52,880 nucleotides of DNA from Candidatus Uhrbacteria bacterium (GTDB lineage Bacteria > Patescibacteriota > Patescibacteriia > JACQRZ01), in NCBI GenBank assembly GCA_016188385.1, contig JACPHV010000037.1, positions 1 to 52,880 of the forward strand, in the 5' to 3' direction. The notes beneath the pieces are model-generated. The model had not been told where the DNA came from, did no database searches, and was given only the letters and a program-made list of their open reading frames with translations. Made by a program: the position numbers and the translations under genes. Positions 1 through 44,203 of the stretch are shown piece after piece (the stretch's first letter is position 1; each line of letters begins with the position of its first letter).

Positions 1-109
1 CGCGTACAAAACCAAAAATTTCCTTACCAATCCATTTTCGGCGGGGGGTGTGGGGGGAGCCGCTAAAAAAATGAAAGGAAATTTTATGGTTTTGTTTCCG
101 CCGCTTCAC
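1..109. repeat. Left arm of a perfect inverted repeat, cut by the window edge; exact reverse complement of 6481..6589
   Basis: A block-by-block reverse complement of 6481..6589 equals 1..109. Identity stops at 110/6480. The arm contains the G-tract GGGGGGTGTGGGGGG. Confidence 0.95.
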
Positions 110-121
110 CATGTAGAAATT

Positions 122-140
122 ATATGGCAGTTTGGCATAT
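122..140 (+). promoter_or_regulatory. Candidate controller-protein operator (imperfect palindrome ATATGGCA-GTT-TGGCATAT)
   Basis: 8-bp arms with one mismatch, about 30 nt upstream of the XRE-family gene start at 169. Confidence 0.25.
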
Positions 141-168
141 TACGCAATGGAATACAAGATACTAATAT

Positions 169-390
169 ATGCCTAGAGCGATATACAAAGAAGAACATCA
201 AAAAATTGTAGAACGTTTGAAAAAGGCGCGGGTTGAAGCTGGTCTAGATCAGGTTGCTGTTGCTGAAAAACTTGGGGAAACTCAATCTTATGTTTCGAAA
301 ATAGAATCGGGACAAAGGCGTTTTGATGTATTGCAACTTAAGGAATTTGCAAAAATTTATAAAAAAGACATTTCTTATTTTATTCAATGA
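169..390 (+). CDS. XRE-family helix-turn-helix protein, probable R-M controller (C) protein
   Basis: 73 aa with a typical HTH_3 pattern (LDQVAVAEKLGETQSYVSKIESGQR). Its stop overlaps the next start (ATGA at 387-390). Confidence 0.8.
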   Translation: MPRAIYKEEHQKIVERLKKARVEAGLDQVAVAEKLGETQSYVSKIESGQRRFDVLQLKEFAKIYKKDISYFIQ

Positions 391-1580
391 CATCTCTCAT
401 AACAACACACTTCGGAAATAAAGACTTTGATATTAGGAAAAAATTTCCTGGTTATTCGCGCTTCATGGACCAAAAAGTTACACCTGATGTTTTGGCGTTT
501 ATTGCTGACTGCGTACTAAATTTACCAGATAGTGAATCGTTTACAGTAAGAGATATTTGGGAATCTGATTATTTTGAGAAAAATACGAAAGCAATATTTG
601 GGAAACCAGCACCTTCTAATGATTCGGCATTTTCTGAATACAACAAATTCATCGGACAACCACTGAAAACACTCGCCTACGCACAAGTGTTAAATGAAAG
701 AAAAGACGGAAACACAAATCGATATGCAATCAACAAAAAGGAGCTTTTGGAATATATTTCTCTCAACGAGAGGGGTGCGTTGGATTTTCTCTGTGAATAT
801 TTGATAAAGGTTCTAACTGACAGCGGTTTCTATTCACATTTTGAGACATATCGTGATCAAGTGAGCGCGAATCACGATTCCAGTAGTTTTGATACTTTCA
901 AACAAAGATTCCAACGCTTCATACGAGGCAACACAGAAATCAACGGAATTTTAGAGATAAATCGAATTTTCCCCAAAGTACTAAATCCACTCGCAGTTAA
1001 AGAAAATATTCCTGGAAGTGAAAAGGGGTACATGACTAAACATCCTTTCATGTTTAGCGAGTTGATGTACAACCGAACAAATTTCCGTGACCTGAAAAAA
1101 GCAAAAGGTGTTTCAAGACAAGAGGCTGTTGAACTTGTATCAGAGCAAAGGCAACAGGAGGATTTTACAGAATATCGAAATACGAAAGCAATGGAGCTTA
1201 TCAAGCGAAAATACACTGCGAGTGAGGTGCGAGATAAATGGGCGGATGGACCAGCTACTTATGTACATCACATTTTCCCACGCGCTAGGTATCGTGAGTA
1301 TGCTGCACATACAGAAAATCTTATTAAACTAACAGCCGAACAGCATTACGGGAATGCCCATCCGAGTGCTAGAACACAAGAAGTAGATCCTGATTACCAA
1401 ATACAATGTCTTCTCGCAAAATGCGACAGCATTGAACAGTCTTTGCGAAACGGAGAATTTATCTACTCAAAAGACAGTTTCATTTCCATGATAAATACTT
1501 GTCTCGGATTGGAGATAGATAGTCAATCATCTTTTGATGATTTACGAAAAGCACTCGCTCGCATACAGACCAAGGCTTAA
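387..1580 (+). CDS. Putative HNH-type restriction endonuclease
   Basis: 397 aa with a C-terminal HNH-like motif (YVHHIFPRARY...ENLIKLTAEQHYGNAHP). Translationally coupled to the C protein and convergent with the methyltransferase, overlapping it by 4 bp. Confidence 0.55.
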   Translation: MTSLITTHFGNKDFDIRKKFPGYSRFMDQKVTPDVLAFIADCVLNLPDSESFTVRDIWESDYFEKNTKAIFGKPAPSNDSAFSEYNKFIGQPLKTLAYAQVLNERKDGNTNRYAINKKELLEYISLNERGALDFLCEYLIKVLTDSGFYSHFETYRDQVSANHDSSSFDTFKQRFQRFIRGNTEINGILEINRIFPKVLNPLAVKENIPGSEKGYMTKHPFMFSELMYNRTNFRDLKKAKGVSRQEAVELVSEQRQQEDFTEYRNTKAMELIKRKYTASEVRDKWADGPATYVHHIFPRARYREYAAHTENLIKLTAEQHYGNAHPSARTQEVDPDYQIQCLLAKCDSIEQSLRNGEFIYSKDSFISMINTCLGLEIDSQSSFDDLRKALARIQTKA

Positions 1581-4117
1581 GCTGTCTTGGCTAAACCAAA
1601 GAAAAATACGGAATTGTTGTCAATATTTAATGACCTGGTTCCGTAATTTCTAGCAACCCTGTAAAACTCCACAAATTCATCTGAATTGTAGTATGCAAGA
1701 TTATCTTCGGTAACTTCAGTCTCTTCTTTCGGGATAAGTACAGCAACCGAGCCATCTACGATAGTGTCTTCTGGCAAAAAACACGCTCGCGGATTGTACG
1801 TTAAATTTGGAACTAGGACAGCTGTTTCGTGGTTAACATATTTTCCAATTGCCAAATTATCATACTCATCAACATACGAATCGTAGTTTGGTATATCTAC
1901 AATTACATTACTTCCGATATTTCTAGATTTAAGAACGCGTATTCGGCCTGATGATTTTGTAATTCTCTTTGTAATTTGTCGATCTCGGTATGCTTCAAAT
2001 ACTCCGAATTTAAGCTTGGATGCAACATCATCAAAGAAAGTATCGCGATAAACGAGCCAGTAAGGAAATTCGGGTGAACAAATATATTTTTGCTTCTTAA
2101 ACCCAATTTCATTTTTTACATAAGACTCCACCAAGGTTTGGTTATCTACCCCTTTCTTTTTTGTATTCAGAATTAGACTAATGGTTTCTATTTTTATTCC
2201 CTTAAATCCTCTTTCTCCATAGTCAGTGATTTTCTCAATCGCAAATTCAGCGACGTACTCTCGCGTGTCGTTAAATTCGGGAGTTGAAAGAAAGCTTTTA
2301 GGGATTATCAAGGCTACTGTATCGGCATGACTTATGGCCTTTTCCAAAAAGAAAGAAAAAAGATTATTAGTTCTTGAATTATGTTTGTTTTTCTTGTATT
2401 CAATCAATAAATTTTCGTTGTCGGTCAATTTACCGAAAGGAGGATTGCCTACAACACTATTGTAGTGAGTGTTTTCTGTAGAAAATAGTCCATTACGACC
2501 AAACAGCAAGAAATCTTCATTGATGAAATTGATTTTGAAATTGTCAGGAATATTAAGTTTTTGAACTAAAACTTTTAGAATTTCAATGGCGTTTGGATCA
2601 ATGTCAATCAAATCTATTTGCACATCTGGTACAGATTTGTATTTCTCAATTAGAAGCGGTAGAAAGTTTCCTGCACCCACTGATGGCTCAAGAATTCGTA
2701 AAGAGGAAAAATTTGAAGCATCTGGTAAATCTTTTACTACAGTGAAGCAAATATCTTGACGTGTGTAGTAAGCAGCGTGTTGGAGGCGGGCTGCATTTGC
2801 GAATTCTATAATTTTCGACAGCTCGGCATAAGAATAATGTTCGAGATTATTCTTTACAAAAGTTTTTATTTTTTCTACCGAATAAAGTTTATTTGTGTCA
2901 ATAATATTTTGCGCTTCTTTTTCATCCAAAATAACTTTCTGAATGGAAGTTTTGATATTTTCTGCAACTTGTCTAAAAATCACCGTTGGCACCGCTTCTC
3001 CAAGTGACTGTCGAATATTCATCTCCTCTTTCTTTAGAAACTTTCGTTTTTTCTCAGATGAAAGTTTGTTTAGATCTTCCTCCGAAATATCAGTCCACTT
3101 GAAAGAATCTGGAACGGACATAAGACGCATAACCTCGCGCACGCTAAATACACGATTATCAGACGGATGAACAGTTGCCTGACTTGCCATTATGTCATTT
3201 CTTGTATGTACACAAGCACCAGGCTTATCCCAATAACAACGCGAATATTTATCCCCATTTTTATTTTTATTAAAGACAATTTTTCCATCCACTATTTTGT
3301 GTGGCCGTCTTTTTGGGTCTTTGTTATCAAAAGCTGATTCTCCCTCTTTTGTTTTCTCAATCCAAGCAAGCATGTGCTCGGCATAGGGGCGGAAGTTGTG
3401 ATAGATATCCTCTGTATCTACTTCGCCCATTTGCTCAAGTGGCTTTAAATCACCAATCACTTCTCGTACAGTCCTTTCTTTCTGGAGTGTAGGCATAAAA
3501 TCTAGCGGTGTGATTTCCGGCATATCTTTCCGTACTCCGAGTACAAGAGTACGAGTACGACTGGATGGATTACCATAGTCCTTAAAATTAATTACTTGAT
3601 AGTGAATGTTATACCTGCCACCTAGATTTAATTCTATGGCCTCGCGAATTTTTTTATCCTTACCATCTATGTCAGTACATAAACTGTTAAGGAAAGCGCG
3701 CACATTCTCAAATAAGAAGAATTTAGGATTAAACTCACTAACTAACTTTACAGATTCAACAACAAGAGAATTACGGGCCAATTCGTCACCTTTTTTATGA
3801 TTTGCAACTGACATACCTTGGCAAGGAGGGGTTGCCATAAGAACATCCAATTCCTTTACACCATGATTCTTTTTCCAAAGATCAAACTCTTTGCGAATCT
3901 TTTCTTTTGTTTCTTCCTTGGTGATATCGTCAGAAATATATCCACTTTCGTAGCGGCACTTATGGTTATGTTTCTGTACATTTAGTCGTCGTTCAATAAT
4001 TTCATTAGTCGCAACACATTCAAAACCCTCTTGCTTAAAACCATAGCACCCAACACCAGCACTACTAAAGAGGCTGATATAAGTAAGCGGTTTATTTTTT
4101 TGATTTTGTTGCATCAT
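1577..4117 (-). CDS. Bifunctional DNA methyltransferase: N-terminal C5-cytosine MTase fused to a C-terminal N6-adenine (Eco57I/TaqI-like, gamma-class) MTase
   Basis: m5C motifs: FSSAGVG (I), TPPCQGMS (IV), FENV (VI), GEAVP (X). m6A motifs: EPSVGAGNF (I), GNPPFG (IV). Confidence 0.9.
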   Translation of the reverse strand: MMQQNQKNKPLTYISLFSSAGVGCYGFKQEGFECVATNEIIERRLNVQKHNHKCRYESGYISDDITKEETKEKIRKEFDLWKKNHGVKELDVLMATPPCQGMSVANHKKGDELARNSLVVESVKLVSEFNPKFFLFENVRAFLNSLCTDIDGKDKKIREAIELNLGGRYNIHYQVINFKDYGNPSSRTRTLVLGVRKDMPEITPLDFMPTLQKERTVREVIGDLKPLEQMGEVDTEDIYHNFRPYAEHMLAWIEKTKEGESAFDNKDPKRRPHKIVDGKIVFNKNKNGDKYSRCYWDKPGACVHTRNDIMASQATVHPSDNRVFSVREVMRLMSVPDSFKWTDISEEDLNKLSSEKKRKFLKKEEMNIRQSLGEAVPTVIFRQVAENIKTSIQKVILDEKEAQNIIDTNKLYSVEKIKTFVKNNLEHYSYAELSKIIEFANAARLQHAAYYTRQDICFTVVKDLPDASNFSSLRILEPSVGAGNFLPLLIEKYKSVPDVQIDLIDIDPNAIEILKVLVQKLNIPDNFKINFINEDFLLFGRNGLFSTENTHYNSVVGNPPFGKLTDNENLLIEYKKNKHNSRTNNLFSFFLEKAISHADTVALIIPKSFLSTPEFNDTREYVAEFAIEKITDYGERGFKGIKIETISLILNTKKKGVDNQTLVESYVKNEIGFKKQKYICSPEFPYWLVYRDTFFDDVASKLKFGVFEAYRDRQITKRITKSSGRIRVLKSRNIGSNVIVDIPNYDSYVDEYDNLAIGKYVNHETAVLVPNLTYNPRACFLPEDTIVDGSVAVLIPKEETEVTEDNLAYYNSDEFVEFYRVARNYGTRSLNIDNNSVFFFGLAKTA

Positions 4118-4158
4118 ATTTATTATAGAAGATATAAACTTTGCTGAGAAGGGCTAAA

Positions 4159-4827
4159 TCATTTTTTGATTACGGCAATAATTTTTCCGTTTATCATAAA
4201 ATCATCCTCACTCGAAACATAAATTGGCTTGTGTTTAGGATTTTTTGATTCAGAAATTAATTTTATATCTCCAGTTTTTGCATCTCGTTCAAATTTCTTA
4301 AGATTAGCCGCACCATCAATAATGGATAAAACATAATCTCCATTTTTCGGTGCTCTATATTCAGAATCAATTAAAACAAAATCTCCCTCTTCAAGATTTT
4401 TCTCATCAATCTTTGCGCGGTTCATAGAGTCACCTTCTACACGCAAAGCAAAAACTCCATCTTTTCGATTTAACTTGCTTCGTGAAATTTTTAAATAGCC
4501 CGCAATATTTTCTTCAGCAAACAATGTTGCAGGTCCGGCATTTGCCGCGCCCAAAACAGGAACACGAACAGAATCCATTCCTGTCTTTTCTAAAAAAGGA
4601 GTTTTCATCGTCCGATCTGCGTAAATACCAATTGAGCGTGGTTTGTTCGATTCTCTCTCTAAATATCCCTCTTCTTGCAATTTCTTCACATGATAGTGAG
4701 CAGACGATGGATAGTTTAGAAAATCAGAAAAATGCTCCGCTATATCTTCCAGAGAGGGAGCCACACCGTGCTCATGCGAGTACGACACTATAAAATCGTA
4801 TATTTGCTTTTGCTTTTTACTGATCAT
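4159..4827 (-). CDS. lexA: LexA-type repressor (winged-helix DNA-binding domain plus S24 self-cleaving peptidase)
   Basis: The N-terminus matches the LexA DNA-binding pattern (KQIYDFI...GVAPSLEDIAEHF...HVKKLQEEGYLE). An Ala-Gly cleavage site lies in GAANAGPA, with GDSM serine and a downstream lysine (NLKKF). The ATG at 4827 is preferred over the TTG at 4842. Confidence 0.85.
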   Translation of the reverse strand: MISKKQKQIYDFIVSYSHEHGVAPSLEDIAEHFSDFLNYPSSAHYHVKKLQEEGYLERESNKPRSIGIYADRTMKTPFLEKTGMDSVRVPVLGAANAGPATLFAEENIAGYLKISRSKLNRKDGVFALRVEGDSMNRAKIDEKNLEEGDFVLIDSEYRAPKNGDYVLSIIDGAANLKKFERDAKTGDIKLISESKNPKHKPIYVSSEDDFMINGKIIAVIKK

Positions 4828-4831
4828 TGTA

Positions 4832-4900
4832 TTGACATTCAAATTATTTTCAAATACAATATCAGTATACTTGAAACTTCAGACAGGAACAAGTATACTT
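4832..4900 (+). promoter_or_regulatory. Divergent control region: sigma70-like promoter TTGACA(4832-4837)-17 nt-TACAAT(4855-4860), followed by two AGTATACT palindromes (4864-4871, 4892-4899)
   Basis: Read directly from the sequence. The palindromes are part of 10-bp inverted arms AGTATACTTG/CAAGTATACT separated by 16 nt, at about +1 and +25 of the predicted transcript. Confidence 0.4.
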
Positions 4901-4927
4901 TATCCACACCCCCAAATACTTACACTT

Positions 4928-5845
4928 ATGATTATTAAGAAACGACGAATACGAGACATTGAGTCAAATCTGCCCGCCGTTAAAGACGGCCAGAAAATTA
5001 TTATTGGTGTTAAAAATCTGGATGACAAAAAAGTTCAGCTAAAAAGGGTGGGGTTTGAGAGTATAGATATCGGTACGTCTGTTCTCCCAAGTCCCGTGTT
5101 CGGTCCAGTCAGTAGATTCAACGCTAACGGAAAAAATTTAGTACACAAAGATAAACCAAAGGAAACAGCGTACAGAACCATTGAGTGGCATTGGAAACAA
5201 TGGCACGGGAAGGATACGATCGATATGTCAAAACTTGTCGATGTTCCGTACAAAAGATACCCCCGAAGCTTTGTTGCTCCGCCCAGCGTTGAATTAAAAC
5301 TAACCACATCCACAAAAAGAGAGGTGCTACTTGTGACGCCAATGTACACCATGGGTTCTGAAGTTGGTGCTCTGTTGCACGCAATCAATCTACTCCTTGA
5401 GATTTTTGGTGAATGTTATGTGTATACGGAAGATCTAGACGAAATTATTAAGACCGAGACCGTTCGTCTAAACTGGAAAATATTGCCCGAGGGAAAGCGA
5501 CCCTGGCAACAACTCAAGAACGAATTAAACCCCGTTATTTCAAAAGCCCGGAAAGGAAAGAGGAAATTTATTGAGAAGCGGCTTGAAACAATAAATGCGT
5601 TTGAACCAGAATTTACAGCAGTGGGCACTGCGGGGTTTGCGGGATATATAATTATGGGATTTCCTTCTTCAGATGTATTTGTATTGGAGAGTTTGTATTA
5701 CGGCAACGCAACCTATGTGCTCGGTACAAACTGGGAGTCGATCTCCAAATTCACAAAGGCGGAAATACTAAATGAGAACCTTCATAAAGACCGAATAATA
5801 CATCGTGTCAGCTGGTTCGATAAAATTAAGAGTGTATTTAAGTAA
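4928..5845 (+). CDS. Hypothetical protein (305 aa), divergent from lexA
   Basis: Long ORF with the island's AT-rich composition. The ATG at 4928 avoids overlap with lexA. I recognised no motif. Confidence 0.6.
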   Translation: MIIKKRRIRDIESNLPAVKDGQKIIIGVKNLDDKKVQLKRVGFESIDIGTSVLPSPVFGPVSRFNANGKNLVHKDKPKETAYRTIEWHWKQWHGKDTIDMSKLVDVPYKRYPRSFVAPPSVELKLTTSTKREVLLVTPMYTMGSEVGALLHAINLLLEIFGECYVYTEDLDEIIKTETVRLNWKILPEGKRPWQQLKNELNPVISKARKGKRKFIEKRLETINAFEPEFTAVGTAGFAGYIIMGFPSSDVFVLESLYYGNATYVLGTNWESISKFTKAEILNENLHKDRIIHRVSWFDKIKSVFK

Positions 5846-5849
5846 ATCT

Positions 5850-6146
5850 ATGTCTAATAAACGATCCAAGGTCGGGCAGAAAAAACACGATGAAAGCGTG
5901 CGGAAAACTGCCGACTGGTACAAAAATCAAGGATTCACAGTTAAAGCCGATCTACCAGGACAAATCAAACCTAAGAAAATAGGAGGATTTGTGCCAGACG
6001 TAATCGCAAAGAAAGGAAAGAAAGAAGTGATTGTTGAAGTAGAAACGAAGAAAACAGCAAGCGCAGACAAAGAGCAACAGCAAGCGTTTCGTGACTACGC
6101 AAACAGAAAGAACAGTCGTGTATTCCGAAAAAAGATAGCAAAATAG
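5850..6146 (+). CDS. Small PD-(D/E)xK (Hjc/restriction-endonuclease-like fold) nuclease candidate
   Basis: 98 aa with the pattern E-x(n)-GF.V-x(n)-PDVIA-x9-VEVETK (D...E.K core). Its ATG lies 4 nt after the upstream stop. Confidence 0.55.
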   Translation: MSNKRSKVGQKKHDESVRKTADWYKNQGFTVKADLPGQIKPKKIGGFVPDVIAKKGKKEVIVEVETKKTASADKEQQQAFRDYANRKNSRVFRKKIAK

Positions 6147-6211
6147 GATTGTTCTAGGGAGTTCCGCTTGCGCGCGCATGGGAGGGTTGGGACAAGCGCA
6201 ATATGATTTGC

Positions 6212-6247
6212 TTGTGCCATTCAGTAGTTTGGCACAATCTGCTTTTT
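6212..6247 (+). terminator. Possible intrinsic terminator after the 4928-6146 gene pair
   Basis: Stem TTGTGCCA/TGGCACAA (6212-6219 / 6230-6237), then TCTGCTTTTT. The T-run is offset by 5 nt, so the call is weak. Confidence 0.3.
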
Positions 6248-6480
6248 AGAGTTACCACGAACGCCACCGAAGCCACAGAGCGAACACGAAGCAAGCACCG
6301 AGCAGGCATCGCGAGCGAATGCGAGCGGCCAATGCGAGGTGATTGCGAAGTGTGAGCGGACTTCTGAACTACCACCAAACACGGAGAGGAAGCGCCTCGC
6401 ACCGACGCAAACGACGGAAGAAAGGGCGGACAGGATATCACCACTTTGCTATACTCAAATTACAAGCCCTTTCTGGAGGA

Positions 6481-6589
6481 GTGAAGCGGCGGAAACAAAA
6501 CCATAAAATTTCCTTTCATTTTTTTAGCGGCTCCCCCCACACCCCCCGCCGAAAATGGATTGGTAAGGAAATTTTTGGTTTTGTACGCG
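6481..6589. repeat. Right arm of the perfect 109-bp inverted repeat (partner 1..109)
   Basis: See the left arm. The match may continue beyond 6589, but the partner sequence lies outside the window. Confidence 0.95.
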
Positions 6590-6917
6590 CGACCAGAGGG
6601 AGCGTGCGAGGCGCGCAACATTCGCTTCACCACACGATCGGAGCGTACGATTGGGTTTCGAGCCACTACGCGCTCGGCGCGTGCGTCAGTCATCAAAATC
6701 CTGCGGATTTTGCTCATACAATGTTCGAACTTCGTCCAAAAAACACCGAATGAAATGGAGCGTAGCAAAATGTAATGAGGAGGGGAGCAACACAACTGCT
6801 TGTGGTGCGTGGGGATGAGAACGCCGGAGCGATATCCGGTTAGCAGACCGGATCGCGAGGCGGTGGCTAGACCGAGGTGAGCGACGGCGAGCCGAGAGTC
6901 GAAGCCGAATCCCCCCC
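6481..6917 (-). ncRNA. Candidate structured RNA with a tmRNA-like 5' end (ssrA?); the 3' boundary is a guess
   Basis: The minus strand from 6917 reads GGGGGGGAUUCGGCUUCGACUCUCGG, close to the remembered E. coli tmRNA 5' end GGGGCUGAUUCUGGAUUCGACGGGA. The region is GC-rich, has no credible ORF and holds many stems. I found no canonical T-arm/ACCA 3' end and no convincing tag ORF. Confidence 0.25.
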
Positions 6918-6994
6918 TCTCCGCCAATAGAAACTTCCGTCAAGAGGGGCTTTTGCGTAGGCCCTACATTATTGAATAATTTTTGCAGTGGAGT

Positions 6995-9390: not shown

Positions 9391-11576
9391 AATCCACATC
9401 ATTCACTATTGTCGGAATGCATTGCGCTTCGTGCCAAGTGCGTAATGAACGCAGCCTAAAAAAAATAACAGGCGTTCAAGAAGCGTCCGTGAATTTTGCC
9501 ACTCATACGGCGCGAGTCTCCTACGATGAGTCGCTTGTTACCGAACGCGATTTACATGCCGCGATCATAAAAAATGGGTATACCGTGCTTACGGAAGAAA
9601 GCTCCGCGCTGCATCGAGAGGCAACGCTCGCCGAAATGAAGCACGCGAAATCACTCGCTTTTTTTTCAATCCTTCTCGCTGCCCCGACAGTGCTTCTCGC
9701 GATGCTTGCCATCGATCTGCGGACACAAATCGCTTCACGCGACCTCTCCGTATGGCTGCAGGCTGGGTTGGCAAGCATTGTGATCCTTGGGTTCGGATGG
9801 CAGTTTCATCGCGGCATGATCACGCAAGCGCTTCGTTTGAGCGCAACCATGGATACATTGATTTCCCTTGGCACTCTTTCCGCGTTTTTTTACAGCGCGT
9901 GGGCGCTCTCTCTAGGAAGAGAAGATTTGTATTTTGAAATAGGGGCGGCTATTACCAGCCTGATTTTGCTGGGGCGATATTTTGAGGCAAAAAGCCGCGG
10001 ACGGGCAAGCGCCGCGATTGAAAAACTTATCCAACTTGGCGCAAAAACAGCGCGGCTTGTCGAAGGAGCTGCTGAACGGGAAATACCGATCGAGACGGTA
10101 AAAGTTGGCGATCTTCTTCTGGTAAAACCGGGAGAGAAGTTTCCGACTGACGCAGTGGTTGCCAACGGAACGTCAAGCGTTGACGAATCAATGCTTACCG
10201 GAGAGAGCATGCCGGTTGGGAAAACAACGGGAGATAGCGTATTTGGCGCAACCATCAATATCAATGGCGCGCTCACCATACGCGCGATCAAGGTTGGCCA
10301 GGATACCGTGTTGTCGCAGATCGTCCGCATGGTCGTCGAAGCGCAAAGCGCAAAAGCGCCGATCCAAAAGCTCGTAGATACGATTTCAGGCATTTTTGTT
10401 CCTGTCGTTATCGTGATTTCAGCGGCAACCGGCGCGTGGTGGTTTTTCCAAACAGGAGAACTAGGCACGGGTATCATACACGCGGTTGCCGTACTTGTAA
10501 TCGCATGCCCTTGCGCGCTCGGGCTCGCGACCCCTACGGCAATTATGGTCGGGACCGGCGCTGGCGCGGAACGCGGTATTCTTATCAAGAATGGAGAAGC
10601 TCTTGAAAAAGGAAAAAAAATCGATGTAGTGCTGTTTGACAAAACCGGAACTCTTACCGAAGGAAAGCCGAATGTAACGGATATTGTGCAATGCCAAAAA
10701 GACATCTCCGCGGAGGCAGTCATTGCTCTTGCCGGGAGCCTTGAGTCGCTTTCAGAGCATCCTTTGGCCCAAGCAGTGGTCGGGTATGCGAAAGAACATA
10801 AGATCGCTTTACAAGAAGTGACGGGGTTTGAAGCGATTTCCGGCAAAGGCGTGCGGGGCGCTATCGGACAGGATACGGTGCTTGTTGGCACTATGCGCCA
10901 TATCAAAGAATCAGGCATAGAGACAGCGGATTGCGAAGCAGATCGCGAGCGCATGGAGAAAGAAGCAAAGACTGTAATGGGTGTCGCAAAAAATAGCAGG
11001 GTGGCAGGGCTCATTGCGGTCGCGGACACCTTAAAAAAAGATGCGCCCGACGCGATACGGAAATTGCGCGCGAAAGGCATACAGACAGGTATGATTACAG
11101 GCGATAATGCGCGTACAGCCCAGGCAATCGCGCGGCTTACCGGAATCGAAACAGTTTTTGCCGAAGTATTGCCGCAGGAGAAAGCGGAGAAAGTCAAAAT
11201 TCTCCAGCGGGAAGGACGTAAGGTTGCCTTTGTGGGCGACGGCATTAATGACGCGCCGGCGCTTGTACAAGCTGATCTCGGCATTGCAATCGGTACCGGA
11301 ACAGATATCGCGATCGAAGCGGGAAACATCGTTCTTGTACACGGCAGTCCCTTGAAGGTATATGAGGCATTGGAGCTTTCAAGCCGCACATTCCGCACTA
11401 TTCAGCAGAACCTTTTTTGGGCCTTTTTCTACAATGTCGCGGCAATTCCCTTGGCCGCGTTTGGATTTCTTAATCCTATGATTGCGGGAGCGGCAATGGC
11501 ATTTTCAAGCGTGAGTGTTGTCGTGAACAGCCTGCGCTTAAAGAACAAGAATCTACCCGATCGCGTTGAGGCGTAA
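9387..11576 (+). CDS. copA: Copper-translocating P1B-type ATPase
   Basis: GMHCASC HMA motif, CPC ([10 protein letters not shown]), DKTGTLT phosphorylation site and GDGINDAP hinge. Confidence 0.95.
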
Positions 11577-20110: not shown

Positions 20111-20119
20111 TGGTATACT
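20111..20119 (+). promoter_or_regulatory. Extended -10 element TGGTATACT upstream of the cupredoxin-like gene
   Basis: The same TGnTATACT element recurs at 24629-24637, 25140-25148 and 48908-48916. AGTATACT occurs at 41129-41136. Confidence 0.4.
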
Positions 20120-33886: not shown

Positions 33887-36800
33887 ATGACTACATCGAA
33901 GCATGATCATGCGGCGCAAGGCAGGCGGGTTTACTTCACAAAAGAGCATAATGTTATTCCACTGCCCCACTTGATTGAAGTTCAAATTGATTCCTACCGT
34001 TGGTTTTGCGAGGCGGGACTGCGTGAGCTATTTGACGAGATTTCTCCGATTCGCGATATCGCATCCAGAGATTTGGAGCTCAACTTCCATGATTTTTATT
34101 TTGATGAGCCGAAGTTCGACGAGAAGACAAGCATGTCGAAAAATTTAAGCTTTGAGACTGCTTTGTGGGTAAAGACGAAGCTGGTGAATAAACGAACCGG
34201 CGAAGAGCGCGATCAGGATATCTATCTCGGCGATTTTCCCGTAATGACGGATCGCGGCACATTCATTATTAACGGCGTGGAGCGTGTTGTGGTATCCCAG
34301 TTGATTCGGTCGGCTGGGGTATTTTTTTCATCGGAAGTATTTCGCGGGTCGGACCGCCGATATTACGGAGCGAAGATTATTCCTAATCGAGGCGCATGGC
34401 TTGAATTCGAGACCGATGAAAATAATTGCATCTGGGTAAAAATCGACCGTAAGAGAAAAGTCGCCGTCACTTCCTTACTGCGCGCTTTCGGCTATGGATC
34501 AGACGAGGAAATTGTACGGCTGTTTACATCGATAGATACCGACGAAGACCGCAGGCACATCGAAGCAACGATCGAACGTGATCTGGCAAAGACAGAAGAA
34601 GAAGGGCTTGTGGAAATCTATAAGAGAATCCGTCCCGGTGATCTCGCGACTCCTGATAACGCGCGTACGTTGATCTATGACATGTTTTTTTGGTTTGATC
34701 GGTATGATCTTGGCCGAGTCGGGCGGCATAAAATGAATCTTCGTTTTGGGCTCGACCATTCAACGAAGACAAAAGAGGGCCGCGTACTTCACAAAGAAGA
34801 TCTCGTGGCGATCATTTCTGAAATCATTTCGTACAATAATTCGCAAAAAGAACCTGATGACATTGATCACTTGGGCAATCGGCGCATCCGCGCGGTAGGT
34901 GAATTGGTTCAGAATAAATTTCGCGTCGGATTGGGGCGCATGGTGCGTATCGTGCGCGATCGCATGAGCACGCTTGATATCGATGCCATGACTCCGGCAA
35001 AATTGATCAACGCGCGGCCGGTGATCATTGCCGTAAAAGAATTTTTTATGTCATCGCAGTTATCCCAATTCATGGATCAGACAAACCCGTTGTCCGAACT
35101 TGAACATAAGCGGCGTATCTCGGCGCTCGGTCCGGGCGGTTTGAGCAGAGAGCGCGCAGGCTTTGAGGTGCGCGACGTACACCCGACCCATTATGGCCGT
35201 ATTTGCCCCATAGCTACGCCGGAAGGCCCTAATATCGGTCTCGTGGGCCACCTTGCCTCGTACGCGAGATTGAATGAATATGGGTTTATTGAAACCCCGT
35301 TCCGTACCATTGAAAAAGACACGAACTCAAAACCGATTGTCACGAAACATGTGCACTATCTTGATGCTTTCACTGAAGAACGAAACGTCACCACAGCCGC
35401 GACTACGCCTTTGGACGCGGACGGCTACTTTATCAATGATAAAGCCGAGGTTCGCAAATACGGACAGCCGGCGCTCGATCAGGTGGATAATGTCCACTAC
35501 ATGGATGTTGCTCCAAACCAAATCGTAAGCATTTCCACATCTCTTATCCCGTTTCTTGAGCATGATGACGCGGCGCGCGCTCTCATGGGCTCCAATATGC
35601 AACGCCAAGCTGTCCCGTTGGTGCGTCCGGAAGCTCCTCGCATCGGAACCGGCGTGGAAGCGCGAGTGGCGCATGATTCAGGCCGTTTGCTTATCAGCGA
35701 TACGGATGGCGTCGTTGTCGGCGTAGAGGGTGATGAGGTGACGATTCAAAAAGATGATGGCGACATCATAAACTACGCTCTTGCGAAATTTGCGCGCTCC
35801 AATGCTTCAACCTGTATCAATCAAAAAGTTCTTTGCCATAAAGGCGACCGCGTGGCGGATGGAGCTACCCTTGCTGACGGCTCATCAACGGAAAACGGAG
35901 AGCTTGCGCTCGGTCAGAATGTGCTCGTCGCCTTCATGTCCTGGGAGCTCGGAAATTACGAAGATGCTATTTTGATATCCGAGCGATTGGTGCACGATGA
36001 TCGCTTCACATCCATTCATATCGAAAATTATACTTTGGCGGTCCGTGATACAAAGCTGGGACCGGAAGTAATTACGCGCGACATACCCAATGTCGGTGAA
36101 GAAAAATTGAAAGACTTGGATGAAGATGGCGTCGTTCGCATCGGCGCTGAAGTATCTTCCGGTGATATCCTTGTCGGTAAGATCACGCCGAAGGGCGAGA
36201 CCGAGCTTTCTCCGGAGGAGAAATTGCTCCGCGCTATTTTTGGAGAAAAAGCAAAGGATACGCGTGATTCTTCCTTATATCTCGAGCACGGCGAACACGG
36301 CAAGGTAATCGATGTAAAAGTATTTTCGCGCGAAAATGGAGACAAAATGCCAGCCGGCGTAATCAAAACAGTCCAAGTGACCGTTGCGCATCTTCGCAAG
36401 ATACAGGTTGGAGATAAAATGGCCGGACGCCACGGCAACAAGGGTGTTATTTCCCGTGTTGTCTCCATGGAGGATATGCCGCATCTGGAAGACGGAACAC
36501 CGGTTGACATCGTGTTGAGTCCGCTTGGTGTTATATCGCGTATGAATCTCGGGCAGCTCCTTGAGACGCATCTCGGCCTGGCGGCTCGCGCGATGAATTT
36601 GCATATCGCAACGCCCGCTCTCGATGGAATTCCCGAAGAGGTGATTCGGGAACAATTAAGCAAAGCGGGTTTTCCAAGCGACGGGAAACTCCAATTGATC
36701 GATGGGAGGACAGGCGAACCCTTTAAGGAAAAAAGCGTAGTCGGCGTGATGTATATGATGAAGCTGATCCACATGGTGGAAGATAAAATCCATCAGCGGT

Positions 36801-37105
36801 CCATCGGTCCCTATTCTTTGATCACTCAACAACCGCTCGGGGGCAAGGCGCAATCCGGCGGACAGCGTTTCGGAGAAATGGAAGTGTGGGCGTTGGAAGC
36901 ATACGGCGCGGCCCATACCCTGCAAGAGATTCTTACGATCAAATCCGACGACATTTCTGGCCGATCAAAAGCATACGAAGCAATCATCAAGGGCGAGAAA
37001 ATAGTAAAGTCGAATGTCCCCGAAGCCTTTAACGTGCTCGTCAGAGAGCTCAAAGGGTTGGGGCTTGATGTCGAGCTGTTAAGGAGTAATCCAGAGGAGC
37101 AATAA
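33887..37105 (+). CDS. rpoB: DNA-directed RNA polymerase subunit beta
   Basis: 1072 aa with hallmark segments (LIEVQ.DSY..F, GTFIINGVERVVVSQL, NMQRQAVPL, GDKMAGRHGNKGV, GGQRFGEMEVWALEAYGA). Confidence 0.98.
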   Translation: MTTSKHDHAAQGRRVYFTKEHNVIPLPHLIEVQIDSYRWFCEAGLRELFDEISPIRDIASRDLELNFHDFYFDEPKFDEKTSMSKNLSFETALWVKTKLVNKRTGEERDQDIYLGDFPVMTDRGTFIINGVERVVVSQLIRSAGVFFSSEVFRGSDRRYYGAKIIPNRGAWLEFETDENNCIWVKIDRKRKVAVTSLLRAFGYGSDEEIVRLFTSIDTDEDRRHIEATIERDLAKTEEEGLVEIYKRIRPGDLATPDNARTLIYDMFFWFDRYDLGRVGRHKMNLRFGLDHSTKTKEGRVLHKEDLVAIISEIISYNNSQKEPDDIDHLGNRRIRAVGELVQNKFRVGLGRMVRIVRDRMSTLDIDAMTPAKLINARPVIIAVKEFFMSSQLSQFMDQTNPLSELEHKRRISALGPGGLSRERAGFEVRDVHPTHYGRICPIATPEGPNIGLVGHLASYARLNEYGFIETPFRTIEKDTNSKPIVTKHVHYLDAFTEERNVTTAATTPLDADGYFINDKAEVRKYGQPALDQVDNVHYMDVAPNQIVSISTSLIPFLEHDDAARALMGSNMQRQAVPLVRPEAPRIGTGVEARVAHDSGRLLISDTDGVVVGVEGDEVTIQKDDGDIINYALAKFARSNASTCINQKVLCHKGDRVADGATLADGSSTENGELALGQNVLVAFMSWELGNYEDAILISERLVHDDRFTSIHIENYTLAVRDTKLGPEVITRDIPNVGEEKLKDLDEDGVVRIGAEVSSGDILVGKITPKGETELSPEEKLLRAIFGEKAKDTRDSSLYLEHGEHGKVIDVKVFSRENGDKMPAGVIKTVQVTVAHLRKIQVGDKMAGRHGNKGVISRVVSMEDMPHLEDGTPVDIVLSPLGVISRMNLGQLLETHLGLAARAMNLHIATPALDGIPEEVIREQLSKAGFPSDGKLQLIDGRTGEPFKEKSVVGVMYMMKLIHMVEDKIHQRSIGPYSLITQQPLGGKAQSGGQRFGEMEVWALEAYGAAHTLQEILTIKSDDISGRSKAYEAIIKGEKIVKSNVPEAFNVLVRELKGLGLDVELLRSNPEEQ

Positions 37106-37111
37106 AAATCT

Positions 37112-40100
37112 ATGGCGCAACGCGATGAACGAAAAGATACGGTGACCGTGCAAGACTTTGACGCGATTCGACTTAAAGTGGCATCGCCCGACGATATCCA
37201 TCGCTGGTCGTATGGAGAGGTGACGCGTCCGGAAACAATCAATTACCGCACGCAGCGCCCGGAAAAAGACGGATTGTTCTCCGAACGTATCTTTGGGCCT
37301 ACGAAGGATTGGGAATGCTATTGCGGAAAATACAAAAAGATTCGATACAAAGGCATCGTATGCGATAAGTGCGGCGTTGAGGTGACGCGTTCGATCGTGC
37401 GACGCGAGCGCATGGGGCATATTGACTTGGCCGCCCCCGTTTCCCATATTTGGTTTTTGCGCGGCGTCCCTTCCAAAATCGGTCTCGCCCTTGATCTTTC
37501 AGTGCAGAATCTTGAAAAGGTAATTTATTTTGCAAGCTTCATTATTACCGATGTGAATGAAGACTTAAAAAAAGAGACGCTCGTAAGTTTACGCGAAGAA
37601 TACAAAACAAAGCGAAAGAGCATTGAACAGGAATACTCGAAAAAATTCGCCGCTCTCGGAGAAACGGAAAAAGGGAAAAAAGAGCTGGAACGCGGTCAAC
37701 AAGAAGCGTTTGCCCAACTTGACGAGCGCATGAAACTTGTTGAAGACGATCTTAAAACGCTTAAACCCTACAAGATCGTAAGCGAGCAAGCGTATCGAGA
37801 TATGTCTCTGAAATACGGCCATGTATTTGAGGCGAGCATCGGAGCCGAATCGATCCGCAAATTGCTTGAGCGCATTGATCTGAAGGCATTGGAAAAGCAT
37901 CTTGACAAGGAAGTTTCTGAAGCTCAAGGGATGAAGAAGGAGAGGTTGATACGCAGAGCAAAACTGATTAAGAGTTTTATTGCGAATAATATCCGTCCGG
38001 AATGGATGATTGCCACAAGCATTCCTATCATTCCCCCGGACTTACGGCCGATGGTCGCCCTTGATGGCGGTCGTTTTGCCACATCCGATCTCAATGATTT
38101 ATACCGGCGCGTGATCAATAGAAACAACCGTTTGAAACAGCTTGTTGAACTGAAGGCTCCGGAAGTAATCTGCCGCAATGAAAAGCGCATGCTGCAAGAA
38201 GCAGTCGATGCCCTCATCGATAATTCCGCGCGTCACGGCAAGACTGTCATTGCGTCCACGGGGAAAAAGCGCACGCTCAAATCCCTTGCCGATATGTTGA
38301 AAGGGAAACGTGGTCGTTTTCGCCAAAATTTGCTCGGCAAGCGCATTGATTATTCCGGACGCAGCGTTATCGTTGTCGGTCCGCATCTCAAGCTGCATGA
38401 ATGCGGCTTGCCCAAAACCATGGCGCTTGATTTGTTCAAACCATTCGTCATAAGCCGGCTTATTCAAAAGGAATACGTCCATAACGTGCGAAGCGCCACA
38501 CGGTTTATCGAATCAGGATGGAACGAAGTATGGGATATCCTGGAAGAGATCGTGCGCGATTCATACGTCATGCTCAATCGCGCGCCTACGCTTCATCGCC
38601 TTGGTATTCAGGCGTTTAAGCCGGTATTGATTGAGGGCAAGGCGATTCAGATTCATCCGCTTGTTTGTTCTGCGTTCAACGCGGATTTTGACGGAGATCA
38701 GATGGCGGTGCATGTGCCGCTTTCCGATGAAGCGCGCGAAGAAGCCCAAGAGTTGATGCTCGCATCGAAAAATCTTCTCAAACCCGCTACCGGCCATCCT
38801 ATTGCGATGCCAAGCCAAGACATTGTATGGGGCGCGTATTACATGACTTGGATGTCGGAAGAGCAAGAAAAACGTTCACAAGAGAACATAAAGAAATTTA
38901 CCACGGAAGAAGAACTGCTTTTAGCGCATTCCCATCAAGCGGTGAATTTAAATGAAAAAGTTATCGTGCGCCTCTCGAGTGATCTCGCGCGTCGCGCGGG
39001 AGTTGACCGACTTGAGACGACACTTGGAAGAATTTTGTTTAACAACATTTTCCCCGTGGGCCTTCCTTATTGGAATGTCAAGATCGACAAAAAGACGATG
39101 GGAGAGATCGTCAGTCTTTGTCTCGATGTATGCGGAGTGGAAGAGACGGCTCGCATCCTCGATGACATCAAGGAGGTATGCGCGCACCATCTGACGCAAT
39201 CAGGCCTTTCATTCGGCATGGATGATATTCCGTTGCTGGACGAGAAACCGGCGTTGATTAAAGAGGTTGAGAAAAAGATTGATGAAGTGCAAAGCCAATA
39301 TGAGATGGGCCTGCTGACATTTCAGGAGCGGAAGAATAAAATCATCACATTGTGGACGGAAGTGCGCGATAAAATTTCAAAGTTAAGCAAAAAAGTCTTA
39401 AAACACGGTTCATCGGTCGAGACGATTATTGATTCCGGCGCCCGAGGTACATGGGCGCAGCTCAATCAGATTATCGGCATGAAGGGCTTGTTGGCGAATC
39501 CATCCGGAGAAATTATAGAACTTGCCGTAAAAAGCAGCTTCAAAGAAGGATTGGGGGTATTGGAATATTTCATTTCTACGCATGGCGCCCGGAAAGGGTT
39601 GGTAGATACCGCCTTGAGAACATCCAATGCCGGATACCTTACGCGTCGGCTTGTTGATGTTTCGCAAGACGTTGTAATCACGGAGCAGGATTGTCAGGAT
39701 AAGGAAGGATTGGCCATAACCGCGGCGGAAGGGAAAGAAATCGATCTTGATTTTTATGATCGTCTTTTCGGCCGAGTAGCATCCGCCACCATCAAAGCGG
39801 CTGACGGCACCATACTCGTAAAGCGGAACGAGTGCATTACAAAAGAACTCGTTGTTGTGCTTCGTGAGAGCGGTATCGAGAACGCGACGATCCGCACACT
39901 ACTCACCTGTAAATCCATTCATGGCGTATGTCAAAAATGTTATGGGTATGATCCTGCTTATAACAAGCCGGTGGCGCTTGGGACGGCAGTCGGGATCATT
40001 GCAGCGCAGAGTCTGGGAGAACCGGGTACGCAGCTTACCATGCGGACGTTCCATACGGGCGGTGTTGCGGGCAGTGATATCACACAGGGTCTTCCTCGCG

Positions 40101-41068
40101 TTGAAGAATTATTTGAATCCCGCATACCGAAGGTTCGCGCGGTGATCAGCGAAGTGGCGGGGACTGTTTCCATCTCGACAAAACAGCGTTCTGTCGTGGA
40201 TGAATCCGGTAAAGAAGTGCTGAAAAGCGCTGGCGGCCAAAAAGTCGTCGCTGTTCATTATGATGCCGTCGAAGAGGATACCTATCGATTCCGGATAACG
40301 GAGCCGCCAGAAGAAGAATCCGAAGGCGTTGAAAAGACTAAAAAAAGAACGGCAAAAAAGATTCTGGTGGCGAAAGACGGTATGAGCGTTGCTGCGGGCG
40401 ATCTTCTCGCGACTGTCGGAAGCAGGGAAATCCGCGCGGAACGAGGCGGTATGGTAAAAATGAAAAAGGAATTCATTACAGTTGCCGTTGAGGCAAAAAA
40501 GATCAAAGAATATCTTGTGCCGGCAAATCGGTTCCTTTTGGCAAAAGAGGGAGAGCTGGTAGCCGCCGGAACTCCTTTGACGGAAGGAAGCCTCGATCTT
40601 CAATTGTTGTACCGGTATCGCGGTGTTGCGGAAACCCAGCGGTATATCATTCGCGAGATTCAGCGTATTTATTTCTCACAAGGACAGAAGTTGAACGATA
40701 AGCATATCGAAGTAATTGTCCGGCAAATGTTTTCCCGCGTATATGTCACCGATGCCGGCGATACGAGTCTCTTGCCCGGAGAAATCGTAGAACGATCAGA
40801 GTTCCTTGATGAAAACATACATGCCGCACAGCAGAGTAAAGAGCCGGCGAAAGGCGAGAATCTGCTCATGGGCATCACAAAGTCATCTTTGTCAACCCAG
40901 AGCTGGCTTTCGGCGGCATCATTCCAAGAAACAGCGCGCGTGCTGATCAACGCGGCAGTAACCGGTAAAGTTGATTATCTGCAAGGATTGAAAGAGAATG
41001 TAATAATCGGACGCTTGATTCCTGTCGGTACGGGATATCGCCACCATACGAACGGTAAGGAAGCGTAA
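37112..41068 (+). CDS. rpoC: DNA-directed RNA polymerase subunit beta'
   Basis: 1318 aa with a Zn-binding [23 protein letters not shown], the catalytic [12 protein letters not shown] and a trigger loop/bridge helix region. Confidence 0.98.
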
Positions 41069-41087
41069 GATTTGGTGAACGGTGTGA

Positions 41088-41127
41088 CTGGGGTTTAGGA
41101 GCCTTTTTGTTCTAACCCCAGTTTTTA
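41088..41127 (+). terminator. Rho-independent terminator after rpoC
   Basis: Stem CTGGGGTT(T)AG/CTAACCCCAG followed by TTTTTA. Confidence 0.7.
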
Positions 41128-41128
41128 T

Positions 41129-41136
41129 AGTATACT
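41129..41136 (+). promoter_or_regulatory. AGTATACT (-10-like) element 8 nt upstream of the ftsK ATG (possible leaderless mRNA)
   Basis: Seen in the sequence. There is no SD between it and the ATG at 41145. Confidence 0.3.
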
Positions 41137-41144
41137 GTACGAGT

Positions 41145-43337: not shown

Positions 43338-43466
43338 TAATGAGACGGAATCTATGTTTACCAGCCTCAATAATACTTTTGCTCTCTTAACGTATCCACT
43401 TGTACTTCTTACGCCATTTTTGTAAGATGTGCTTATTACTTGAAGAGAGGTTTCATAATAAGCCGT

Positions 43467-44192
43467 ATGGTGCAATTTAGCAGGAAATCGGTTTTGATCC
43501 CTAGCTCTGTCGGCGCCAAACTTTCTTCTGCTCGTGAAGCATGGGGCATGACGAGAGAAGATGTGTCGGCCGCATTACTCATTCCGACTGTACAGTTAGA
43601 GCGCATTGAACAGAGTGATTTTTCCTGTGCGCCGGAAACGGTATATCATGAACACAGTATCAAGGCCTACGCAATGTATCTCGGACTTGATTGGGATTCC
43701 TTGCGTTCAGAGTATCAAAAGGAACGGCAGGTGTTCCATCCTTCAGCCGACCGCCATGGCGGCATGACCGGTTCTCCGCTTCGCCGGTCGTCATTCTGGG
43801 TCGTTCCGCGCATAGCCCGCAACGGCATGTTGGGTGCCCTTGCCGTCGCTACATTTTCTTATCTCGCGTTTCTTGGATATCAGATGGTGCGCCCTCCGCA
43901 TCTCCAGATCGTCAGCCCCAGCAATAATGCCTTGAGCGCCGTTGATACGATTGAAGTAGCGGGATATACCGAACGTGACGCGCGGATTTTGATCAACGGA
44001 GAGCGGATCACGAAAGGAATCGACGGTGAATTTCGGCAAGTAATCGGATTACGGGAAGGGGTTAACGTCATTCAAGTGACCGCGGAAAAAAAATTCGGAA
44101 CCATATCGAAAGAATCTCGAACAGTAATATTTAGTGAAGAGCCGTTTGGCGCCGGCAATGGAATTCGAAAGACGACGGGGTATAAATTTTAA
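43467..44192 (+). CDS. HTH (XRE-like) domain, single TM helix and extracytoplasmic beta-rich domain; RodZ-like architecture
   Basis: N-terminal HTH ([22 protein letters not shown]), a TM helix ([18 protein letters not shown]) and a C-terminal Ig-like segment. Start uncertain (43440 TTG or 43467 ATG). Confidence 0.6.
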
Positions 44193-44203
44193 CAGCACTC
44201 ACT

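Follow-up and report, generated by a model that had tools for sequence, protein, structure and literature searches.

A LexA-type repressor coupled to a restriction-modification methyltransferase and facing a swappable operon in a mobile cassette of Candidatus Uhrbacteria

Gene content of the locus

The window analysed here is a stretch of 52,880 nt from Candidatus Uhrbacteria bacterium (contig JACPHV010000037.1, assembly GCA_016188385.1). It comprises an entire contig of a groundwater metagenome, and the names borne by close LexA and P98 homologues suggest a Patescibacteria genome. Our subject is the block of six genes at its left end: a Type II restriction-modification (R-M) system, a lexA gene encoding a LexA-type repressor, and two further genes, here called P305 and P98, whose products have 305 and 98 residues. 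These six genes occupy an AT-rich first 6 kb, positions 1-6000 having a GC content of 34-42% as against about 50% in the remainder of the window. The R-M system comprises a controller (C) protein gene of the HTH_3 type (169-390, forward strand; Pfam HTH_3 3.8e-14, with Control_protein and HTH matches in PADLOC), a Type II restriction endonuclease gene (R; 387-1580, forward; PADLOC REase_II 5.9e-92, with weak HNH matches in PHROGs) whose start overlaps the C gene by 4 nt, and a gene for a fused C5-cytosine and N6-adenine (Eco57I-type) DNA methyltransferase (M; 1577-4117, reverse; Pfam DNA_methylase 1.2e-42 and Eco57I 8.1e-11; PADLOC MTase_II 7e-238). Methyltransferase, endonuclease and helix-turn-helix (HTH) controller genes of a Type II system with a C protein are therefore all present together by PADLOC and Pfam.

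The lexA gene (4159-4827, reverse) precedes M on the same strand, with 41 nt between its stop (4159) and the start of M (4117), and R and C run convergently towards this pair. Divergent from lexA are P305 (4928-5845, forward), which belongs to a large uncharacterised family without a recognisable domain or fold, and, after a gap of 4 nt, P98 (5850-6146, forward), an AHJR/Hjc-like mini-nuclease of the PD-(D/E)xK type by Pfam and by its AlphaFold2 (AF2) model. An earlier note on this DNA, made from the sequence alone, had described genes for LexA, a 305-residue protein and a mini PD-(D/E)xK nuclease, and all are present as described. The R-M-LexA-P305-P98 block is found in at least five other contigs, so that the adjacency of lexA, P305 and P98 is not due to chance. 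The suggestion that the pair might supply a second nuclease partner for the methyltransferase is not supported, as M has its own endonuclease and C protein, and P305 and P98 each occur without that methyltransferase; with the R-M system complete in the window, no extra nuclease is needed.

The LexA protein

The product of lexA, 222 aa long, combines a winged-helix DNA-binding domain with an S24 self-cleaving domain (Pfam LexA_DNA_bind 5.3e-11; Peptidase_S24 7.6e-22) and scores 123.1 bits on the NCBIfam equivalog model for lexA, TIGR00498, the cut-off of which is 110.95. Solved LexA structures align over its full length (3k2z, T. maritima LexA, 1.8e-14), and the Ala-Gly loop LGAANAGP, the serine of GDSM and the lysine of LKKF match the corresponding residues of 3k2z. 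LexA has far more close relatives than P305 or P98; among the best 120 listed, which are 64-95% identical, GDSM is kept in 119 and LK[KR] in all 120. Taken together, the score above the TIGR00498 cut-off and the alignment of motifs with 3k2z bear out the earlier reading of a bona fide LexA with winged helix, Ala-Gly site and Ser/Lys dyad, and to judge from these motifs the protein is genuine and looks competent for cleavage. Its start is most likely the ATG at 4827, because homologues measure 221-222 aa and the alignment begins at MISKKQKQ. An alternative TTG start at 4842 was rejected on the size of the homologues and the point at which the alignment begins.

Coupling of lexA to methyltransferase genes

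Metagenome contigs of the Joint Genome Institute (JGI) were scanned with LexA peptides alone, yielding 80 loci. A same-strand downstream gene matching a methyltransferase query was present in 41 of the 73 loci in which a downstream gene lies on the contig, a methyltransferase was recognised downstream of lexA by Pfam in four more, and a further 16 loci possess a single long LexA open reading frame (ORF). Three of these long ORFs were tested with Pfam (L170, 4663-6525; L181, 5935-7863; L185, 5980-7452), and all three contain LexA_DNA_bind, S24 and N6_N4_Mtase and are true LexA-methyltransferase fusions. Once the loci had been dereplicated at 90% LexA identity, coupling to a methyltransferase was seen in 30 of 40 informative clusters, with the methyltransferase downstream on the same strand in 21 and fused in 9.

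The methyltransferases linked to lexA belong to at least four unrelated types, and the gaps are mostly 1-47 nt. The contexts of three close LexA relatives repeat the plan of the window, with lexA followed by a same-strand methyltransferase of differing type and then by convergent endonuclease and C genes, and with variable genes on the divergent side. A further locus (L092) carries the lexA-methyltransferase unit with P98 opposite and without P305. The methyltransferase is thus the most constant partner of LexA, as an operon or as a fusion, a link that the earlier note had missed. Indeed, the same wiring is common to dozens of groundwater bacteria, with known anti-phage systems in the slot that P305 and P98 occupy here.

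Two side observations concern the gene next to lexA. Among L170-L188 the fusion ORFs measure 491-643 aa and are followed by a convergent ORF of endonuclease size (~235 aa) and a C gene. Elsewhere the gene after lexA is a non-methylase (L152, 1011-1796; L132, 6781-7539); one of the two products has a DCD (Development and Cell Death) domain (1.4e-26), the other a NOV_C domain.

Exchange of the divergent operon and mobility of the block

P305 and P98 lie within a swappable cargo module (4912-6151, forward) that is replaced by other sequence in two loci with a LexA 96% identical to ours (L111 and L113). To these loci, window positions 1-4911 and 6152-6748 show ~90-91% identity, and the breakpoints of the replacement, 4911/4912 and 6151/6152, are clean. 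A scan of 62 proteins encoded in the divergent slot recovered six SMODS cyclases of cyclic-oligonucleotide-based antiphage signalling systems (CBASS), five TIR proteins of the ThsB type and four caspases, together with patatin, SLATT, HNH and STAND/AAA proteins; the PADLOC matches to cyclases and effectors of CBASS were strong. What the divergent slot carries is immune cargo. Neither P305 nor P98 was found in any of the 80 LexA loci, and the pair is therefore one rare cargo among many.

The block also moves as a whole. Between the window (341-6137) and L081 there is 83% nucleotide identity, and R, M, LexA, P305 and P98 are 78-92% identical in amino acids (R, 88%), whereas for the flanking CsoR and P-type ATPase genes the identity to L081 falls to 33-37%, and the flanks cannot be aligned. 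The same block, whole or cut at contig ends, occurs in L087-L090, and three further contigs (L104, L105 and L106) have in common a 5.5-kb SMODS-lexA-M-R-C block at 99% identity between unrelated flanks. The earlier impression of an AT-rich island was thus well founded, and the island has moved horizontally.

The cassette is bracketed by an inverted repeat. Its left arm (1-109), cut by the start of the contig, is 100% complementary to 6481-6589; the right arm extends from 6481 to probably 6748, as judged from L113, in which a perfect 268-nt inverted repeat (4713-4980 / 10720-10987) encloses cargo, lexA, M, R and C. Only two copies of the repeat sequence exist in the window. This arrangement suggests repeat-bounded cassettes, possibly invertible or transposable, without a transposase inside. 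In L113, a neighbouring two-gene unit is likewise bracketed by diverged copies of the same repeat (236-440 / 2841-3045).

The control region between lexA and the cargo

The 100 nt that separate lexA from the cargo are conserved across LexA identities from 97% down to 32%, and promoter hexamers, a direct repeat and a 9-mer are all retained over that range. Towards P305 there is a promoter, P1 (4832-4860, forward; TTGACA-17-TACAAT), with 11 of 12 consensus matches and both hexamers kept in relatives, and a second promoter-like site, P2 (4871-4899, forward; TTGAAA-17-TATACT), with 10 of 12. The probable lexA promoter (4864-4892, reverse) has its -10 hexamer TATACT at 4869 to 4864 and, across a 17-nt spacer, its -35 hexamer TTGTTC at 4892 to 4887. 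The layout is the same in relatives, in which the -35 reads TTGCTA or TTGCTT, and TATACT is the usual -10 hexamer of the genome. A search for RNA runs that include this locus found none.

The candidate LexA operator is the direct repeat ATTTGAA-N4-ATTTGAA (4838-4855), with an 11-bp period, which is situated both in the spacer of P1 and in the 5' leader of lexA. Of 74 loci, 37 have a perfect 7-mer repeat of the same period at about -28, and the two copies vary in step (ATTAGAA, AATCGAA, TAGAAGA); in the ATTAGAA clade the recognition helix is altered as well, to AHYYV(D/S)KL from AHYHVKKLQ. The exact repeat occurs once in the window, and no second direct repeat within two mismatches was found elsewhere in it, nor in particular before ftsK (41145), the HTH_25 gene (43440) or recA (44204).

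At the edge of the conserved region lies the 9-mer TTATCCACA (4900-4908), which has the very sequence of the DnaA-box consensus. An exact copy is present in 50 of 74 LexA loci, and a relaxed pattern finds it in 62 of 74, about 80 nt from the lexA ATG (mostly -75 to -95); it adjoins the cargo junction, homology with L111 and L113 stopping at 4911. It may bind DnaA, belong to the LexA operator or act as the core of a recombination site. Another candidate, AGTATACT, was considered as a LexA box because it occurs three times in the window, where 0.16 copies would be expected: twice in the intergenic region and once upstream of ftsK-recA. It was rejected because TATACT is an ordinary host -10 hexamer, seen as TGNTATACT at several host promoters; the motif is also absent from L081.

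These observations bear on whether the LexA of the cassette is simply the global SOS repressor of the cell, its gene serving as a hot spot for defence systems and P305-P98 being ordinary SOS genes of Patescibacteria. This account has a real but minor chance of being correct. It is in keeping with a LexA above the equivalog cut-off, with the presence of recA in the window, and with close homologues that are common in metagenome-assembled genomes of Paceibacterota, Parcubacteria and Peregrinibacteria, where they are named LexA; near-identical lexA genes (93-97%) between differing R-M types and cargos are likewise what a conserved anchor gene would give. Moreover, the small genomes of the candidate phyla radiation (CPR) are unlikely to have two lexA genes. 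Nevertheless, lexA travels with the block, as seen in the 5.5-kb block in three unrelated contexts and in L081, which has the block alone in common with the window; the LexA-methyltransferase fusions argue for a dedicated function; the candidate operator was not found upstream of ftsK-recA or elsewhere in the 52.9 kb; and the copy of AGTATACT upstream of ftsK is accounted for by the host -10 consensus. The roles of global SOS repressor and of cassette controller are not exclusive. Should the genome have no other lexA, one of its core stress regulators would be carried on mobile DNA.

The P305 family and its neighbours

P305 begins at an ATG common to all homologues and has no match in Pfam, NCBIfam, PADLOC (E <= 0.1) or PHROGs. 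A word-indexed search returned 555 relatives at ~50% identity, none of them named, from cyanobacteria, Thermotogota, Chloroflexota, Patescibacteria and others, and an exhaustive profile search returned 2,021 cluster representatives at E <= 0.001, most of which are stand-alone proteins of ~300 aa that match from end to end. Relatives are present in 80 species genomes, archaea included, and on small plasmids of Lactococcus, Latilactobacillus, Acinetobacter and Leptospira. The structural model is confident (predicted local distance difference test, pLDDT, 91.1; predicted template-modelling score, pTM, 0.83; alignment of 70 sequences), and with it Foldseek found nothing significant in the PDB (best E 0.077; template-modelling (TM) score <= 0.15) or in BFVD (best E 0.029); a profile search of the PDB was empty. 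The earlier note had recognised nothing in this protein, and both sequence and fold searches agree. P305 is thus a widespread family of bacteria, archaea and plasmids with a confident model and no known fold, which now has a testable context.

Three stand-alone homologues, 35-44% identical, are encoded on Lactococcus cremoris SK11 plasmid 5 (L084), an 8.6-kb plasmid of Acinetobacter johnsonii (L085) and Leptospira pLIMHP1 (L086), where the neighbours are a 1,560-aa DEAD/DEAH helicase, a BrnTA pair, or DUF2971/DUF4917 genes. Within the model of P305, residues 79-110 (window about 5162-5257) form a 30-residue beta-hairpin rich in Trp and Tyr (EWHWKQW...). Weak Foldseek matches driven by this hairpin to pore forms of lysenin and alpha-hemolysin (E about 0.08 or worse) are not significant and are no evidence of a beta-pore-forming toxin; they offer a lead at most.

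In a neighbourhood survey of 80 genomes, the only recurrent neighbours of P305 are genes for cleavable repressors. A LexA-type repressor adjoins P305 in nine genomes, in eight of which it carries LexA_DNA_bind and S24, and an M78 (ImmA/IrrE) peptidase gene lies within three genes of P305 in 21; together, a LexA or M78 regulator is near P305 in 30 of the 80, across many phyla. LexA is also beside P305 in L081-L091. The linkage of P305 to S24 repressors is conserved across genomes. The leading Pfam families among 93 immediate neighbours are Peptidase_M78 (7), Peptidase_S24 (6), HTH_3 (5) and LexA_DNA_bind (5), and the remainder are defence-island genes that each appear once, among them Shedu, SLATT, RloB and AAA_15/21. 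Co-directional lexA-(DUF2188)-P305 operons are found in L012, L065 and L091, and DUF2188 stands beside P305 in nine loci and in L091. M78 neighbours resembling CapP occur in L016 (a full-length match, 1.5e-38), L018 and L051 (down to 5e-21).

The survey contradicts the notion that lexA, P305 and P98 were brought together by chance in a gene-dense island, which we regard as scarcely credible. Many loci do have P98 or P305 alone, with neither its companion nor LexA, but the recurrence of the block, the regulators near P305 in so many phyla and the conservation of the control region all stand against it.

Other neighbours recall RosmerTA (RmrT/RmrA), toxin-antitoxin defence systems in which a hypervariable toxin is paired with an HTH-protease partner (bioRxiv 10.1101/2022.05.11.491447; PMC10440598). 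In L052, P305 is closely preceded on its own strand by the gene for a full-length RmrA homologue (1.4e-108), and in L004 and L037 it is adjoined by proteins with a weaker likeness to RmrA (~1e-29 to 1e-33). It could therefore be proposed that P305 is the toxin of a RosmerTA-like addiction module in which LexA has taken the place of RmrA, both being an HTH joined to a protease, and that the pair mainly stabilises the mobile cassette; the hypervariable RosmerTA toxins, the function of which is unknown, would accommodate such a protein. We consider this distinctly unlikely. The window has LexA, with no M78 gene or RmrA in the cassette, and no PADLOC RmrT model matches P305; the RmrA-like gene of cyanobacteria runs divergently from P305, an arrangement suggestive of transcriptional control; the strongest link of LexA is to the methyltransferase; and direct neutralisation of proteins by LexA is not known.

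The P98 nuclease

P98 matches the Pfam AHJR-like family PF18743 (4.9e-9; 36.2 bits against a gathering cut-off of 26.1), and its AF2 model (pLDDT 88) is nearest to archaeal Hjc resolvases (4tkd_C, probability 1.00, TM 0.64). The top PDB matches, 4tkd, 2eo0, 2wcw and 1gef, have probabilities of 0.99-1.00 and TM scores of 0.5-0.64 at E values of only ~2e-3, and the model is also near the endonuclease domain of R2 elements and XisH. With a profile score above the cut-off and a model nearest Hjc, the nuclease assignment of the earlier note is supported, and by fold and profile P98 is, as modelled, an Hjc/restriction-fold nuclease. H13, D34, D50, E63 and E65 are invariant among its relatives; K55 is nearly invariant, and the lysine of the ExK motif, K67, varies (K/R/P/T/E). 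Unlike archaeal Hjc, P98 is short (98 aa), does not conserve K67, and is a bacterial accessory protein found in defence islands and a phage. Among L093-L101, homologues form MazG-P98-HEPN_AbiV triads beside a Tsp45I-type R-M system; others belong to the structural module of a phage, adjoining a ScaI-type R-M system, or accompany a MazE/PIN pair. A fixed partnership of P98 with P305 was considered and rejected, no P98 homologue being present in the 80 P305 loci and the pairing being confined to the closest relatives.

The resemblance to Holliday-junction resolvases brings in the main alternative for P305-P98, namely that the two form a repair or recombination module, an Hjc-like resolvase with its partner, induced to mend breaks that include those made by the endonuclease of the cassette itself. 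Control by LexA is a classic mark of repair genes, and P305 has no toxin or defence model match. On the other hand, elsewhere this slot is filled by CBASS, TIR, caspase and patatin systems; P305 is found in contexts resembling defence islands (Shedu, SLATT, RloB/AAA_15, BrnTA, DUF4917) and on small plasmids, and is paired with regulators of the RmrA/CapP type known from toxin-antitoxin and immune operons; and P98 is neither a constant partner of P305 nor invariant in its ExK lysine. A repair role is accordingly unlikely, though it deserves serious consideration.

A model for LexA as the hub of the cassette

Our findings are best accommodated by one mobile, repeat-bracketed defence cassette in which LexA is the regulatory hub, and in which RecA-triggered cleavage of LexA induces the methylase together with a second-line effector, and we consider this reading rather probable. 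In such a scheme lexA and M would form one transcription unit, on which R and C converge, and back-to-back promoters within the 100-nt control region would drive lexA-M and the cargo operon on the opposite strand. A LexA dimer would bind the direct repeat ATTTGAA-N4-ATTTGAA and would hold both units low, because the repeat lies between the -35 and -10 hexamers of P1 and within the lexA leader. DNA breaks, whether arising from phage attack, from cleavage of phage DNA or under-methylated host DNA by the cassette's own endonuclease, or from damage of another kind, would give rise to RecA-ssDNA filaments, and these would provoke self-cleavage of LexA at Ala-Gly. This in turn would yield more methylase and fresh LexA, a feedback that would protect the chromosome and then reset the switch, and P305 and P98 would be expressed as a second-line response, probably toxic or abortive. 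The earlier proposal of a damage-inducible nuclease or defence module is thus upheld in part: the pair fits a slot that elsewhere holds CBASS, TIR and caspase systems, while the idea of a nuclease partner for the methyltransferase finds no support.

Several observations weigh against this scheme. M has a candidate promoter of its own (TTCTCA-17-TATAAT, 4150 to 4122) and may be separately transcribed. Most of the surveyed LexA relatives keep the helix AHYHVKKLQ while the repeat varies, and co-variation of repeat and helix is therefore only partial. The conserved 9-mer, and not the direct repeat, could be the real LexA site; in L081, the nearest of the long contigs, the repeat has been retained and the 9-mer has not. 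P305 matches no curated defence model (PADLOC, PHROG) and is absent from all 80 JGI LexA loci, so that its role rests on position and neighbours. Finally, the perfect repeat at the contig end could be partly an effect of assembly.

A broader proposition is that a self-cleaving LexA is an integral controller of Type II R-M systems, as an operon or fusion, through which DNA damage due to restriction or phage calls up both more methylase, for the protection of self, and a swappable second-line immune operon (CBASS, TIR, caspase or P305). P305 would in that case stand for a new family of effectors, ~2,000 clusters in size, whose fold resembles no solved structure. We advance this more tentatively, as somewhat on the doubtful side of even. 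In the literature on LexA with R-M systems, CBASS or CPR bacteria we found no description of this arrangement, and LexA as a part of R-M cassettes gating swappable immune cargo is apparently an undescribed architecture. In the fixed coupling of LexA to R-M methylases one may suspect an inbuilt protection from self-restriction, as well as a hand-over from first-line to second-line defence. It is tempting to see in the cassette a rule of "guilt by slot" by which new effectors may be recognised in the poorly studied CPR bacteria.

Relation to known systems

The closest known systems are CapH/CapP, CapW (BrxR) and CapK/CapS, DNA-damage-responsive regulators that lie upstream of immune operons, are inactivated after DNA damage and thereby raise the expression of those operons; a second-line defence that cooperates with R-M systems is proposed by their authors (bioRxiv 10.1101/2022.04.27.489752; PMC11662680; PMC13373217). 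The scheme set out above follows the logic proposed for these regulators and for RosmerTA, with LexA as the sensor. The likeness extends to the position of the repressor gene, which is divergent from CBASS and other immune operons or closely precedes them, to DUF2188, which is noted in CapH/CapP operons and stands beside P305 relatives, and to the CapP- and RmrA-like M78 genes near P305 elsewhere. The differences are that the sensor in the window is a one-protein LexA, a winged HTH with S24 that is normally stimulated by activated RecA, and not an HTH + M78 pair, a WYL protein or a kinase, and that LexA is physically part of an R-M system. The CapH (HTH) and CapP (M78) pair is absent from the window, and the word LexA is absent from the CapH/CapP preprint and the CapK/CapS paper. 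The control of immune operons by damage has emerged as a theme only recently; if its LexA version is real, immunity would be wired directly to the classical RecA signal.

R-M systems with their own regulators offer a second comparison. Methyltransferases of the SsoII/EcoRII type repress their own gene through an N-terminal HTH and, as in systems with C proteins, a small DNA-binding module encoded with or fused to R-M genes sets the balance of M and R; the window itself has a classical C protein before R. What differs is that the module before or fused to M is a LexA with S24, which would tie M expression to DNA damage.

Known units under LexA control include the lexA2-imuA-imuB-dnaE2 mutagenesis cassette and SOS-controlled colicins, and symE and tisB are SOS-induced toxins (PMC3874152). 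These resemble the cassette in placing accessory or toxic genes under LexA, and imuAB travel with their own copy of lexA; unlike them, the cargo here consists of an R-M methylase and immune-type operons, not polymerases or bacteriocins. The same review, of R-M regulation, mentions LexA only for SOS-controlled toxin-antitoxin systems (PMC3874152). The candidate operator, a direct repeat of ATTNGAA, is also unlike the LexA-box motifs listed in PMC8565304.

Cassette flank and host promoters

To the right of the cargo, window 6152-6950 is a GC-rich, ORF-poor stretch; over 6150-6950 Rfam and ARAGORN returned no match. It contains an extended -10 promoter TGCTATACT (6447-6455, forward) and ends in a 3' end like that of a tRNA or tmRNA, GAATCCCCCCCTCTCCGCCA, at about 6905-6925. 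Logan contigs at this stretch show depth spikes of 22-48 against 7 and many loose ends, one with a canonical T-arm. The stretch may be an att remnant or an unknown RNA. In L081, a contig of 448 kb, a tRNA-like 3' end (1815-1840) lies ~1.5 kb to the left of the block, which hints at integration near a tRNA gene.

Host promoters with the extended -10 TGNTATACT are found in the window at 20113, 24631, 25142, 48911 and 41131. In some cases no more than 4-8 nt separate the -10 hexamer from the ATG (ftsK, 41145; the methyltransferase, 4117, with its hexamer at 4122-4127), and this closeness hints at leaderless mRNAs in this organism. Further along the window (33887-45301), the order of genes is rpoB, rpoC, a terminator, ftsK, the HTH_25 (RodZ-like) gene and recA; the last two are probably co-transcribed, since recA starts 11 nt after the HTH_25 gene.

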